Shown here in pieces: positions 1 through 56,429 of a DNA stretch of 64,000 nt. Under the pieces are notes generated by a model. That model made no database searches. It saw nothing but the letters and a program-made list of their open reading frames with translations, and was not told the DNA's origin. Position 1 is the first letter of the stretch. Each line of letters begins with the position of its first letter. The translations under genes and the position numbers were made by a program. The DNA lies in the NCBI GenBank assembly GCA_030698395.1, contig JAUYKW010000025.1, positions 4,179 to 68,178 on the forward strand, given 5' to 3'. Origin of the DNA: a bacterium. Lineage in GTDB: Bacteria; Patescibacteriota; Patescibacteriia; UBA9570.

Positions 1-48
1 GATCATTGTTTAGTATAGAACATAATAATAGTACCGTATTTTATTTTG

Positions 49-122
49 TGGACGGTAGTGGATTCGAACCGCTGACCTCTTGCGTGTCGAGCAAGCGCTC
101 TAACCAACTGAGCTAACCGTCC
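49..122 (-). tRNA. tRNA-Val (anticodon GAC); atypical C at position 33 and one C·A mismatch in T-stem
   Basis: Hand-folded cloverleaf on the minus strand: acceptor GGACGGT/ACCGTCC, D-arm GCTC/GAGC, anticodon stem CTTGC/GCAAG, loop TCGACAC, T-loop TTCGAAT. Confidence 0.7.
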
Positions 123-197
123 CTTTTATTTTTTAATGTTCACTATATAACCGTAGCAACAACAACCCCTTTGTACTCCCTTCCGGCAAGCAAGTAA

Positions 198-247
198 CCT
201 CCGCCAGAGGCGGATCAGCCTTCGGCTGAAACTGAGCTAACCGTCCC
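198..247 (-). repeat. Truncated 5' copy of tRNA-Val (18 nt, to D-loop CAGTT) fused to a 32-nt twin-hairpin element (tcagccgaaggctga + tccgcctctggcgga)
   Basis: The reverse complement of 230-247 equals the first 18 nt of tRNA-Val. Two adjacent 6-bp stem hairpins follow. Downstream sequence resumes tRNA-like 'ggtta..gcttgc'. Confidence 0.8.
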
Positions 248-254
248 TTTTTTG

Positions 255-327
255 TGCTCCTAGATGGAATTGAACCATCGACCCCAGTCTTATAAGGACT
301 GTGCTCTAACCCCTGAGCTATAGGAGC
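255..327 (-). tRNA. tRNA-Ile (anticodon UAU, reads AUA)
   Basis: Cloverleaf: acceptor GCTCCTA/TAGGAGC, anticodon stem CAGTC/GACTG, loop CTTATAA, T-loop TTCAATT. Confidence 0.75.
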
Positions 328-486
328 CTGGACAGTTCCTTCGGAACTGAACAGGCAAGCTGAATTTGTAAATAACCACTGCTTGTCTGTTCAATTACGA
401 ACAAAGTGAGTAATTGTCCAGAAGCTATAGGAGCTTATAATGTGATGTATATATTAGCAGACCAAGAAAATTGAACAAGTGTCTAC

Positions 487-19107: not shown

Positions 19108-20597
<1,490 letters not shown>

Positions 20598-23265: not shown

Positions 23266-23274
23266 GCAAAAATA

Positions 23275-23426
23275 AAAACAAAAGAGAAATACAATTAAAG
23301 CCACTATCGGGGATTGGCGCAGTTTCCGCCAAAGGCGGATCAGCCTATGGCTGAGGCTAGAACCAATGTCTGAATAAAAACAAAAGAGAAATACAATTCA
23401 AGCCACTATCGGGGATTGGCGCAGTT
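23275..23426 (+). repeat. ~50-bp direct repeat (35 nt upstream flank + first 17 nt of tRNA-Pro) flanking a 51-bp insert that begins with the twin-hairpin element in inverted orientation
   Basis: The copies at 23275-23324 and 23376-23426 differ by 1 nt. The insert tccgccaaaggcggatcagcctatggctgagg sits exactly after 'gcgcagtt' of the truncated tRNA-Pro copy. Confidence 0.85.
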
Positions 23427-23483
23427 GGCTAGCGCGCGCCGTTTGGGACGGTGAGGCCCCGGGTTCGAGTCCCGGATCCCCGA
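23410..23483 (+). tRNA. tRNA-Pro (anticodon UGG)
   Basis: Acceptor CGGGGAT/ATCCCCG, anticodon loop TTTGGGA, T-loop TTCGAGT. Confidence 0.85.
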
Positions 23484-25117
23484 CCCTTTAGGAAAGCAGC
23501 TGATTTCTTATGGTCAAGCAAAATATTAAACGGTTCTTTGGCCTGAAAATCCAATACTTTTTTGTTTTTAATAGTAAAGTTCAAGAACATATTTTGGAGT
23601 ATTGTATCTAATAGCTTCATATCTCTAGTTTGAGCAATAATATCAGGCATTTTTTGAAAAAGTTCGAGAAACTCCTTTTGAGAAAAAATAAAACTTTTGG
23701 AATCATTCAAAATATTATTAATTGCATCTAGTCTAATTTCTAGCTCCTCAATTTTTTGAAGAGTAAGTTTATAATCAAGTTTAAAAGCTAGCTTTACTTT
23801 TTCATCTGTTTCATTTAAAAGTAATTGTTTTACTTGGTCTAAACTTTTTCTTTTGATATTCAATTTTTGAACTACGCTAGATTTTTCACTTGTTAACTCC
23901 TGTGCCTTAGCCTTGATTACAGTATTCATCTGATTCAAGTAAATTTTATAATTATGCTTAGTTGCCAGTTTATTTTTCCTAATAAGCTGAATAACAAAAT
24001 CAACAATCACTTTTGCTCTTATAGACTTATTATGAAAATTACATTTCTTGTTTTCACACCTGTAATAATAATATCCTTTCTTAGAGCCATTCTTTAAGTA
24101 TTTATAGGTAATACCTGAAGAAAATGGAAAATTACACACACCACACACAACTCTGCCGCGCAATAAATCTGCGCTTGTATATTTTTTTGACCTAAGTTGT
24201 GATGTAACTTTAAAACCTTTAGTTAGATCACTAATTTTATTGATCCTTAAAAAATCGATAACTGAAACGGCAGGGATAAAATCACATTTATCAGTTAGAT
24301 CAACAATACTATCTGCACCATATATTAAAACTCCCGTATAAAAGGGATCTCTCAATATTTCTGATAAACGTGATTTATTCATTTCATATAACTTACCAAG
24401 ATGTTGGTAACTGTTACTATTAATATAAAGAATGATGTCATTTAATGTTTTGCCATTCAATTTCATTTGAAAGGCTTGTTTGATTAGTACGAAATTATTT
24501 CCATTTGGATGATGAAATTGGGCAGCATCTTTATAATATCCATGCTTAGCCGTATTAATATATTTACCTTCGGCAATACTTCTTTTATTACCACGTTTTA
24601 CATTGTCACTTAATTGATCTGAATATTGTTTGGACAATACAAACGCCATTCCTAATAACATCTTCCCAGAGGCCGTATTTTCGAAGCTAAAGCTCTTAAA
24701 CTTCAAATCACGAATAACTCCCTTATCAAGTAAATCAATCAGCTCACCAGCCTCTTTCATATTGCGTGCTAATCTATCGGGATGCCAGGCAATAATTGCA
24801 TCGTATCTGCCCGCTTTGATGCGATCTACCATCTCTCTGAACTGAGGCCGTATATCCGGATCCTTGGCTGATTCAGACTCTCTATAAACCTTTACAACAT
24901 TTAAGCCCAGCTGCTGAGATAATTCTTCACATTCTGCGACTTGATCTGCCAACGACCGAGCCTGACGCTCTTCTCCTTCAGTAGATTTACGAACATATAA
25001 AATATATTTCAACAAGTCTGCCTCCTGCTGTGGTTCAATTAACATTCTATACAATAAATCGGTAAATTCTTGTGGGGTGCTTATTGAAGCACTTAAGTTG
25101 GATTGTTTATTGCTCAT
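23429..25117 (-). CDS. large serine recombinase (resolvase domain + recombinase domain + zinc ribbon); 3' end overlaps tRNA-Pro
   Basis: YILYVRKSTEGEERQARSLADQ catalytic-Ser motif, DRLARN, C-terminal CGVCNFPF...YYYRCENKKC; 562 aa. Confidence 0.85.
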   Translation of the reverse strand: MSNKQSNLSASISTPQEFTDLLYRMLIEPQQEADLLKYILYVRKSTEGEERQARSLADQVAECEELSQQLGLNVVKVYRESESAKDPDIRPQFREMVDRIKAGRYDAIIAWHPDRLARNMKEAGELIDLLDKGVIRDLKFKSFSFENTASGKMLLGMAFVLSKQYSDQLSDNVKRGNKRSIAEGKYINTAKHGYYKDAAQFHHPNGNNFVLIKQAFQMKLNGKTLNDIILYINSNSYQHLGKLYEMNKSRLSEILRDPFYTGVLIYGADSIVDLTDKCDFIPAVSVIDFLRINKISDLTKGFKVTSQLRSKKYTSADLLRGRVVCGVCNFPFSSGITYKYLKNGSKKGYYYYRCENKKCNFHNKSIRAKVIVDFVIQLIRKNKLATKHNYKIYLNQMNTVIKAKAQELTSEKSSVVQKLNIKRKSLDQVKQLLLNETDEKVKLAFKLDYKLTLQKIEELEIRLDAINNILNDSKSFIFSQKEFLELFQKMPDIIAQTRDMKLLDTILQNMFLNFTIKNKKVLDFQAKEPFNILLDHKKSAAFLKGRGSGTRTRGLTVPNGAR

Positions 25118-37124: not shown

Positions 37125-37388
37125 TTGAGCGTCCACTTAATTACTAATGGACGTTTTATGTTTTATACTTACATTCTACGAAGTCTGATCGATCAACGAA
37201 CTTACGTTGGTCATACAAATAATATTAAAAATAGAGTAAATAGACATAATTCTGTCTTGGTTAAGTCTACTAAAACAAGATGTCCTCTTAAACTAATCTA
37301 TCTAGAACAACATTCTACATTACAAAAAGCTAAACCTCCCGTATTCGACACTCATCTTTGGATATGCAACGGAATAACTCTTTCGTAA
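37125..37388 (+). CDS. GIY-YIG nuclease-domain protein (YhbQ/UPF0213-like), divergent C-terminus
   Basis: FYTYILRS...RTYVGHTNNIKNRVNRHN matches the GIY-YIG core. The likely start is the internal Met at 37158. Confidence 0.65.
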   Translation: MSVHLITNGRFMFYTYILRSLIDQRTYVGHTNNIKNRVNRHNSVLVKSTKTRCPLKLIYLEQHSTLQKAKPPVFDTHLWICNGITLS

Positions 37389-56035: not shown

Positions 56036-56187
56036 CAATTGTAATATGTCCGAACAACGGGACAAAATTCAAAACAACATACTCTCCACAACGTCCAGAA
56101 AACATTTACGGAGGCAAATGATACCAGTTAGAAGTAATATAATTTACGATTGACAGGCTAAAATAACTTGGATATTATACCTCCTAC

Positions 56188-56353
56188 GCGGGGATAGCTC
56201 AGTTTCAGCCAAAGGCTGATCCGCCTACGGCGGAGGATAGAGCCCTTACCTACGATAGTCTATTTATAATGCGGGGATAGCTCAGTTTCAGCCAAAGGCT
56301 GATCCGCCTACGGCGGAGGATAGAGCCCTTACCTACGATAGTCTATTTATAAT
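56188..56353 (+). repeat. two tandem 83-bp units, each = first 17 nt of tRNA-Gly(GCC) + 32-nt twin-hairpin element + degenerate D-arm-like tail
   Basis: Units 56188-56270 and 56271-56353 are identical. The insert follows 'gctcagtt' and the tail begins ggatagagc (compare native ggtagagcg). Confidence 0.9.
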
Positions 56354-56429
56354 GCGGGGATAGCTCAGTTGGTAGAGCGTCTGCTTGCCATGCAGAAGGT
56401 CGCGAGTTCGAATCTCGTTTCCCGCTCCA
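56354..56429 (+). tRNA. tRNA-Gly (anticodon GCC), CCA encoded
   Basis: Cloverleaf with anticodon loop TTGCCAT. Confidence 0.9.

Follow-up and report, generated by a model that had tools for sequence, protein, structure and literature searches.

The 64,000-nt stretch of DNA analysed here (the window; contig JAUYKW010000025.1, positions 4,179 to 68,178) comes from an uncultured bacterium and carries, ahead of several of its tRNA genes, truncated 5′ copies of those same genes, most of them interrupted by a 30-nt twin hairpin that we call EL. FtsH and its neighbouring genes place the host in the Patescibacteria (Candidate Phyla Radiation, CPR), near Kerfeldbacteria-like metagenome-assembled genomes (MAGs), with a best FtsH identity of 75-79% among the relatives in the protein collection; the GC content of the window is ∼35%. 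ARAGORN and Rfam find eight tRNA genes in it. All four ELs lie between nt 17 and 18 of the D-loop, in 5′ fragments of tRNA-Val, tRNA-Pro and tRNA-Gly, and over nt 1-17 fragment and gene are 100% identical at each of these three loci. As a further fragment, of tRNA-Ile(UAU), adds a fourth case, upstream 5′ fragments accompany four of the eight tRNA genes (Val, Pro, Gly and Ile(UAU)).

At the Val locus, on the minus strand, the order is tRNA-Ile(UAU), pseudo-Val nt 1-17, the twin hairpin, GGTTA, a 72-nt spacer and the intact tRNA-Val. An earlier, sequence-only reading of this DNA had proposed that a truncated 5′ copy of tRNA-Val, interrupted at the D-loop by the twin hairpin, precedes the intact gene, and this is indeed what we find: the displaced fragment (251..230) comprises five leader nt (AAAAG) and tRNA nt 1-17, ends in CAGTT and is identical to 126..105 at 22 of 22 positions, while EL copy 1 (TCAGCCgaaGGCTGA + TCCGCCtctGGCGGA in tRNA orientation; 229..200, 30 nt) sits between tRNA nt 17 and 18. 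The order it gave for tRNA-Ile, fragment and hairpins is likewise correct, but not the 7-nt gap it placed after tRNA-Ile, whose 3′ end is followed by six A (253..248) instead. Past EL, the fragment resumes with GGTTA (199..195, -; tRNA-Val nt 18-22) and is followed by CTTGCTTGCCGGAAGGGAG (194..176, -), an imperfect hairpin at D-loop position 21/22, and by an AT-rich spacer (175..123, -) that is now the leader of the intact tRNA-Val(GAC) (122..48, -; ARAGORN and Rfam). By eye, CTTGCTTGCCGGAAGGGAG resembles the palindrome CCTGCCTGCCGGCAGGCAGG, which occupies D-loop 21/22 at the related loci L122, L217 and L129 (loci outside the window are given by L numbers), and on this resemblance it appears to be a decayed member of a second hairpin family found at that position elsewhere. 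GC-rich hairpins of this second family lie at D-loop 21/22, between GGTTA and GAGC, of tRNA fragments in L122, L217, L129, L139 and L196. The degenerate tRNA-Val-like sequence that had been read into the spacer does not extend beyond GGTTA, the similarity that follows being not significant (z-score 1.3); a decayed tRNA-Val was rejected as the origin of the spacer on these grounds, and no significant similarity of the spacer to tRNA, GIY-YIG genes or other loci was found. An independent Logan assembly of SRR13727534 contains the identical tRNA-Ile/pseudo-Val/EL junction, stopping at window position 222, 8 nt into EL, so that the junction is not an artefact of MAG assembly.

The tRNA-Ile(UAU) gene directly upstream of the pseudo-Val fragment (327..254, -; ARAGORN; Rfam tRNA, 70.6 bits) has an anticodon that is uncommon in bacteria, where AUA is usually decoded by a lysidine-modified CAU tRNA; the gene is kept in the relatives L122 and L123. 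Its own 5′ fragment, the 12-nt GCTCCTATAGCT (434..423, -), lies 107 nt upstream of the gene and has no EL. At the same place in L122 (8864-8938), tRNA-Ile is preceded by its own nt 1-21, the 20-nt palindrome CCTGCCTGCCGGCAGGCAGG and nt 22-32; the process is therefore recurrent in this lineage and has made use of more than one palindrome.

The same element in the same D-loop position had also been seen before tRNA-Pro (23325) and twice before tRNA-Gly(GCC) (56205 and 56288), and each of these three copies does follow tRNA nt 1-17. At the Pro locus, on the plus strand, a first copy of the 37-nt tRNA-Pro leader and tRNA-Pro nt 1-17 (23308-23324) make up positions 23271..23324, which are identical to 23373-23426 at 53 of 54 positions. 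EL copy 2 (TCCGCCaaaGGCGGA + TCAGCCtatGGCTGA; 23325..23354), with its A/C hairpins in the opposite orientation relative to the tRNA, is followed by GGCTAG (tRNA-Pro nt 18-23) plus 12 further nt (23355..23372), by a second leader copy (23373-23409) and by the intact tRNA-Pro(UGG) (23410-23486). The Gly locus, also on the plus strand, starts with a sigma-70-like promoter, TTGACA-17-TATTAT (11/12; 56150..56178), that ends 9 nt ahead of the first pseudo-Gly fragment. Two identical 83-nt tandem repeats follow: unit 1 (56188..56270) consists of tRNA-Gly nt 1-17 (56188-56204), EL copy 3 (56205-56234) and a remainder (56235-56270) that starts with GGATAGAGC and contains a decayed continuation and spacer, and unit 2 (56271..56353) of tRNA-Gly nt 1-17 (56271-56287), EL copy 4 (56288-56317) and spacer. 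The Gly spacer compared with the rest of the tRNA gives a z-score of 2.9. The intact tRNA-Gly(GCC) (56354..56429; ARAGORN and Rfam) comes directly after unit 2.

EL itself is a 30-nt sequence with two-fold symmetry, TCMGCC-NRA-GGCKGA followed by TCMGCC-TYN-GGCKGA, that is, two perfect hairpins with 6-bp stems and 3-nt loops, which are interchangeable and are seen in both orientations. The stems are invariant and the loops free, within the patterns N-R-A for the first and T-Y-N for the second, and the M/K stem position is complementary in 522 of 522 hairpins (338 C-G, 184 A-T, 0 mismatched); given this complementarity and these loop patterns, the 30-mer is a palindrome centred on GATC. That its occurrence is not due to chance, as the sequence-only reading held, is borne out by the nine matches to the single-hairpin pattern in the window, where 0.10 are expected and where the eight exact ones form the four twins, by the folding of the twin hairpins as single-stranded DNA (-11.6 kcal/mol, z -3.9 to -5.1), and by an identity to tRNA 5′ ends beside the motif that is far beyond chance. 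The flanks are symmetric as well, with T-T before and R-A-A after EL (T in 84% at -2, A in 76% at +2). An Rfam search, at gathering and at permissive thresholds, returned no family matching EL, and a literature search by sequence and by topic returned no description of EL in bacteria, only cloning primers, mitochondrial hairpin repeats and a survey of tRNA introns in Patescibacteria, in which the EL/tRNA layout is not described. EL is apparently an undescribed family of tiny selfish DNA insertions present in many uncultured bacteria.

We scanned for the exact EL pattern with one genome per species and obtained at least 120 loci; the 125 copies among the matches listed form our unbiased set. 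The hosts include Patescibacteria, Omnitrophota, Ignavibacteria, Kiritimatiellae, Verrucomicrobiota, Lentisphaerae and gamma- and deltaproteobacterial MAGs, among others, and 13 viral contigs also carry EL. While 12 of the 125 copies listed (∼10%) lie within 300 nt of a tRNA gene, about 3-fold over expectation, 49 of the 125 (39%) are found within open frames 150 or more codons long, 37 of these in the frame that encodes SAxGGSAxGG. The idea of a tiny, site-specific palindromic insertion element therefore stands as far as a discrete, repeated palindromic insertion is concerned, and falls with regard to tRNA specificity, the lack of which that reading had itself named as a ground for refutation. 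Only TCCGCC hairpins occur in the SAxGGSAxGG frame, since a hairpin of the TCAGCC type would introduce a TGA stop there. The host proteins of this peptide, named by eye from their translations, include RpoC, AspRS, ValRS, CysRS, UvrB, DnaG and Mfd (L106, L020, L049, L109, L031, L002 and L055), of which CysRS alone was checked by a search. Its alignment with PDB 3sp1 shows a gap of exactly 10 residues opposite SAEGGSAFGG, two residues ahead of the KMSKS motif; judged from this alignment, EL was inserted in CysRS as exactly 30 bp and did not duplicate its target, and the peptide appears to be tolerated in proteins as a flexible, linker-like segment. Within tRNA fragments of the unbiased set, EL also occurs in anticodon loops (L076, L042 and L032), T-loops (L083, L084 and L079) and a D-stem (L014), so that a location after tRNA position ∼17-18, raised earlier as a question, holds for dozens of independent metagenomic loci but not for these.

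Two candidate properties of EL were tested and discarded. A 7-bp target duplication, to which a flank register test pointed (z 7.6), is rejected by the exact 10-residue gap in CysRS; the register signal arises because ELs sit inside short tandem repeats of 6-8 nt. A long flank duplication is not a general property either, with only 21 of 124 loci above the 95th percentile of the control. Intergenic ELs often lie within 6-8-nt tandem repeats on both sides (AAAAGTC, GAAAGTN, GAAATTG and GAACTTA, for example; L057, L103, L101, L034, L050, L062, L102 and L254), and these repeats are not target duplications.

A second scan, of metagenomes, for AGTT + EL + GG gave 112 non-redundant sites among the matches listed. 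We called a fragment layout where the 17 nt upstream of EL are identical, at 13 or more of 17 positions, to the 5′ end of a same-strand tRNA located at most 400 nt downstream. This is the case at 39 of the 112 listed sites, covering 17 anticodon types; a further 28 have a downstream tRNA and a diverged flank, six show a mirror form (intact tRNA, a few nt, EL, 3′ part), 11 run into a contig end, and the other 28 are mainly Gly/Ser-rich coding repeats. In the class of 39, the identity starts at tRNA +1, the leader matching over 0-5 nt in about 22 of 26 cases; the nucleotides after EL (mode 7, GGYTAGA) match the local D-loop variant, and the spacer bears no relation to the native leader. Fragment units are often repeated in tandem (L150, L218, L223 and L155), and in L138, L161 and L168 the fragment represents a different allele from that of the downstream gene. 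Empty sites are found in relatives: L122 has tRNA-Ile, 5 nt and tRNA-Val, with neither fragment nor EL, and L258 has tRNA-Phe, 194 nt and a tRNA-Pro that differs from that of the window at two positions. Because these relatives have empty sites, the Val and Pro events are younger than the splits from L122 and L258.

Several of these loci have features of their own. In L155 (1990-2700), four tandem 5′ pseudo-copies of tRNA-Thr, each with a CCCCGCCGTGGCGGGG hairpin, precede the intact gene, past which lies a GIY-YIG gene that ends on the TAG of another fragment, followed by the CCCCGCCGTGGCGGGG hairpin once more. L258 (2334-2527, -) contains a 3′ fragment of tRNA-Phe, GATCCTCGCCCTCGAAGCA, about 75 nt downstream of the intact tRNA-Phe. 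L032 (150-540) has, upstream of the real gene, a tRNA-Ser(CGA)-like copy of full length whose D-loop, anticodon and T-loop contain hairpin insertions and whose T stem and variable arm differ from those of the real gene by compensatory changes; this copy is a foreign allele that was killed recently, or else a structured RNA.

When the open reading frames (ORFs) around the at least 120 genome loci were clustered, a single family proved common to EL loci, a bare GIY-YIG catalytic domain of ∼85 aa (Pfam: PF01541, E-values 1e-13 to 1e-17) with no DNA-binding domain. Among the loci listed, the unbiased set contains nine members of this family, six of them no more than 300 nt from an EL. In the DNA examined, 25 of 32 GIY-YIG domains lie within ∼160 nt of a same-strand tRNA, four of these 25 far from any EL, and in the metagenome scan a GIY-YIG gene is nearby at 18 of 84 tRNA-associated sites against 0 of 28 others, among the matches listed. 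Two arrangements recur. In the first, the order is fragment (nt 1-17), EL, a few nt, GIY-YIG ORF and intact tRNA (L164, L169, L184, L231, L156, L176 and L222), and in four of the seven loci the stop codon of the ORF is tRNA U8-A9-G10. The second is its mirror, with the intact tRNA, 13 nt, the GIY-YIG ORF, 9 nt of D-arm, EL, the 3′ part (nt 18-76) and the native trailer (L160, L193, L234 and L190). L190 has both ends: when the 440 nt that run from the start of its first EL to the end of its second are taken out, a valid tRNA-Pro(GGG) results, which differs from the intact tRNA-Pro(GGG) that lies inside the insert beside the GIY-YIG gene. Similarly, the resident tRNA-Val of L129 is interrupted at 21/22 by an insert that is bounded by arms of the second palindrome and carries another tRNA-Val allele, and in L165 a nuclease-less spacer keeps a coding remnant of the GIY-YIG C-terminus. 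Because GIY-YIG proteins encoded next to tRNAs of different species can be 71-73% identical, these cassettes change tRNA hosts. In L220 (212-3302), the nuclease gene of a fragment-EL-GIY-YIG-tRNA-Met cassette is split by ∼2.7 kb between the inverted repeats ctatatagataactaccctaaa and tttagggtagttatctatatag, probably an insertion sequence nested in the cassette. The window contains a decayed mini GIY-YIG gene (37158-37334, within 37125-37388, +; Pfam E-value 1.5e-12) whose C-terminal half is replaced and which lies beside neither a tRNA nor an EL.

The explanation that we favour, and regard as reasonably probable, has two tiers: a selfish palindromic EL, housed in displaced tRNA 5′ fragments that were left behind by replacement cassettes. 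For the first tier it is largely established that the twin hairpin belongs to a widespread family of palindromic insertions of 30 bp, selfish and without coding capacity; that EL enters as an exact insertion of its 30 bp, with no duplication of the target and usually between TT and R-A; that it persists only where it is tolerated, namely in intergenic DNA, as SAxGGSAxGG in proteins and in non-functional pieces of tRNA; and that the fragments in the window, just upstream of working tRNA genes, are dead and co-transcribed with them. RNase P would strip such fragments together with the leader. For the second tier, comparison of the loci suggests that the fragments are the displaced 5′ ends of resident tRNA genes for which a replacement copy has taken over. 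An essential tRNA gene would be interruptible only if such a copy came along or already existed, and it could have been delivered by a cassette of the L190/L129 type or made by local duplication. In the fuller versions seen at other loci, a cassette splits the resident tRNA gene in its D-loop and consists of a palindrome, a replacement tRNA, with or without a small GIY-YIG gene, and a second palindrome. The duplicated parts of the tRNA would subsequently recombine, with loss of the nuclease gene and of the displaced 3′ part, leaving the 5′ fragment, EL, a few tRNA nt, a foreign spacer and the intact tRNA, which is the layout of the window; tandem amplification by unequal exchange could have produced the two Gly units. 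At Pro, where the leader is duplicated, the spare copy would for that reason have been made locally. The GIY-YIG nuclease is the best candidate for the enzyme that would make the break.

Several observations weigh against this explanation. The flanks AGTT and GG were preset in the metagenome scan, which inflates the frequency of the D-loop site by design. No GIY-YIG gene is found at the Val, Pro and Gly loci, the only copy in the window being the decayed one, ∼13.8 kb from the nearest EL; nor does the window contain a displaced 3′ tRNA part, and a comparison of its spacers with GIY-YIG genes and other loci found no similarity, so that they were rejected as decayed nuclease genes or as copies of those loci. 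Rebuilding of tRNAs in silico at the ∼84 tRNA-associated sites listed gave complete split-tRNA composites at L190 and L129 only. The duplication of the native Pro leader points to a local duplication rather than to a foreign cassette. Furthermore, we know of no transposase-like activity in GIY-YIG proteins of ∼85 aa that lack a DNA-binding domain, the model does not explain how EL reached sites without homology, such as those in CysRS and RpoC, and, with GIY-YIG proteins that are up to 73% identical beside different tRNAs, it leaves the repeated making of tRNA-specific duplicated parts unexplained.

Part of this evidence would fit another course of events, in which EL inserts straight into a working tRNA gene, repair of the palindrome or of the break draws on the sister chromosome through template switching or unequal exchange, and survival is limited to products in which an intact gene has been regenerated beside the interrupted piece, with neither cassette nor nuclease involved at these loci. 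The Pro locus with its own 37-nt leader duplicated, the identical 83-nt Gly units and the tandem arrays elsewhere, the full identity of fragment and gene over nt 1-17 at the three window loci, and spacers free of GIY-YIG remnants all speak for it. A local duplication should, however, copy the leader, whereas at most loci the identity ends exactly at tRNA +1 and the spacer is unlike the native leader; the differing alleles in L138, L161 and L168, the real cassettes in L190 and L129, and a Val spacer without a local match also argue against it, and we consider it unlikely. A far-reaching extension of the two-tier explanation is similarly doubtful in our view: EL and the ∼85-aa GIY-YIG protein might together form an unrecognised mobile system, in which a putative structure-specific nuclease with no DNA-binding domain would recognise hairpin or cruciform DNA, both in the twin hairpin of EL and in the extruded arms of tRNA genes, mobilise the 30-bp palindrome without target duplication and drive, across many uncultured phyla, cassettes that replace resident tRNA genes with nuclease-resistant copies of their own, in a manner akin to a toxin and its antidote.

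A functional role for the fragments, raised before as a structured processing or regulatory module, finds no support here. Fragment and twin hairpin would here form a part of the pre-tRNA leader that serves processing, stability or regulation, for instance as a decoy 5′ half in competition for the 3′ acceptor strand, or through hairpins that protect or that set the timing of cleavage by RNase P, and some features suit such a role: fragments are co-transcribed with the tRNA, as the promoter indicates, they are identical to the 5′ end of the gene, the layout recurs with 17 anticodon types among the sites listed, and the hairpin arms always pair. The identical 30-mer, however, is translated in essential proteins, is scattered through intergenic DNA and occurs in both orientations; relatives lack it at their orthologous Val and Pro loci, even where tRNA-Pro is near-identical. 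Copy number, spacer length and fragment length vary freely, the fragments decay, no Rfam family corresponds to the module and the fold of the whole precursor is unremarkable (z -1.6), which together make this role rather improbable. In the minimum-energy fold of the Ile-Val precursor (window 48-330, -), the pseudo 5′ strand replaces the true one and pairs with the 3′ acceptor strand of tRNA-Val, an arrangement that is in keeping with the module and by which the fragment could also interfere with folding of the precursor.

Mobilisation in trans by a Y1 transposase, of the REP-associated tyrosine transposase (RAYT) or TnpA type, would make EL a miniature element derived from IS200/IS605 or one like the repetitive extragenic palindromic (REP) sequences and bacterial interspersed mosaic elements (BIME). 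Its build of short hairpins, its many dispersed copies and its lack of a target duplication, as in IS200/IS605, agree with this; nevertheless, the transposase that the sequence-only reading had suggested looking for is found neither among the 28 ORFs of the window nor among the protein families common to the at least 120 EL loci, where the small GIY-YIG nuclease is the only linked family. Together with the missing GTAG head, flanks that are symmetric (T-T and R-A-A on the two sides) where the IS200/IS605 target is one-sided, and the 39% of listed copies inside ORFs, unlike extragenic REPs, this renders such an origin very improbable.

The genes around tRNA-Pro deserve a brief description. The 16S rRNA gene (19109-20596, +) is unlinked, with neither a 23S nor a 5S gene in the window; it is followed by genes for an fn3-domain protein and a family-39-like glycosyltransferase and, 2.5 kb away, by a tRNA-Ile(GAU)-Phe-Pro cluster. 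A large serine recombinase with Resolvase, Recombinase and Zn-ribbon domains (562 aa) is encoded at 25117..23429 (-), its final ∼20 codons running antisense through the 3′ part of tRNA-Pro. Although this recombinase gene adjoins tRNA-Pro and overlaps it at the 3′ end, and integration into tRNA genes is a classic event, an att scar of an integrase-mediated genomic island can hardly be the explanation, since the part duplicated is the 5′ end, which faces away from the recombinase, no recombinase is encoded near Val or Gly, the same 30-mer is a simple insertion in ORFs, and the 3′ end of tRNA-Pro is not repeated in the window, for which reason the recombinase was rejected as the cause.

If confirmed, these observations would place EL among the smallest insertion elements known (30 bp), common to many uncultured phyla and able to live in essential genes, such as those for RNA polymerase and aminoacyl-tRNA synthetases, as a harmless ten-residue linker. 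The tRNA genes of Patescibacteria appear to undergo invasion and replacement time and again, and are left with fragment arrays and lengthened pre-tRNA leaders. Such fragments confuse tRNA annotation and break assemblies, as in the Logan contig that stops inside EL, and a large family of orphan mini GIY-YIG nucleases is now linked to a concrete genomic role. EL is also a marker of recent horizontal exchange among candidate phyla, as SAxGGSAxGG sites are of insertion-tolerant positions in conserved proteins.

Compared with known systems, EL falls outside the REP/RAYT elements, the PATE-type miniatures of IS200/IS605 and the tRNA introns, as features that define them were looked for and are absent. 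A tRNA intron (group I, group II or bulge-helix-bulge) was rejected because the window lacks a 3′ part for the interrupted copy, the insert measures 30 nt and Rfam returned no intron match. REP/BIME sequences are, like EL, short hairpin-forming repeats, but they are imperfect palindromes of 20-40 nt with a 5′ GTAG head, whereas the stems of EL are perfect and invariant and lack GTAG; and they are extragenic, while 49 of the 125 EL copies listed lie in frames of at least 150 codons, in frame in the case of CysRS. Members of the IS200/IS605 family insert without target duplication, a feature shared by EL as seen in the CysRS gap and in the clean insertion between tRNA nt 17 and 18, but they have a one-sided tetra- or pentanucleotide target and distinct end hairpins, in contrast to the symmetric flanks and interchangeable hairpins of EL. 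Integrative islands that target tRNA genes resemble the cassettes in that an essential tRNA is interrupted, its missing part is supplied and a displaced fragment remains as a direct repeat. They restore the tRNA 3′ end, however, whereas here it is usually the 5′ end that is displaced, the elements measure 50-450 bp and the junction lies in the D-loop; no integrase is found between the duplicated tRNA copies, the serine recombinase lying beyond the 3′ end of tRNA-Pro.

Two groups of dispersed repeats come closer to EL. The double-hairpin elements (DHE) in the mitochondria of Allomyces and chytrids, and GC-rich hairpin repeats of organelles in general, also consist of two adjacent short hairpins, are dispersed in intergenic DNA and genes and are considered mobile; the likeness is one of form, and DHE are organellar, EL bacterial. 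The genomes that carry DHE reportedly contain free-standing GIY-YIG endonuclease ORFs as well; we know of no report of a tRNA-fragment layout for DHE. The Rickettsia palindromic elements (RPE), for their part, are reportedly selfish repeats that lie in frame in essential genes. Like EL, they are short palindromic repeats found both in such genes and in non-coding DNA, have no known transposase and are tolerated as peptides; they differ in size (∼100-150 bp against 30 bp), in their unrelated sequence and in being confined to Rickettsia, while EL is spread over many phyla and has both the tRNA D-loop layout and a link to GIY-YIG. EL behaves like an RPE, then, and is not a member of that family.

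The cassettes, in turn, recall free-standing GIY-YIG homing genes. One of these, atp6-ORF360 of Allomyces, duplicates part of its target gene. So does the gene for the free-standing GIY-YIG homing endonuclease SegB in the tRNA cluster of phage T4 (PMC2330249). A GIY-YIG domain (PF01541) is likewise encoded in the element at related loci, and is not at the three loci of the window. What sets the cassettes apart is the ∼85-aa catalytic domain that stands alone, the replacement tRNA, whole or partial, and the palindromic junction. What they share with homing genes is an ORF packed against or inside a conserved gene, the regeneration of that gene with a displaced partial copy left behind, and a presence/absence polymorphism among relatives, seen here in the empty Val site of L122, the empty Pro site of L258 and the tRNA-Pro(GGG) that can be rebuilt in L190.

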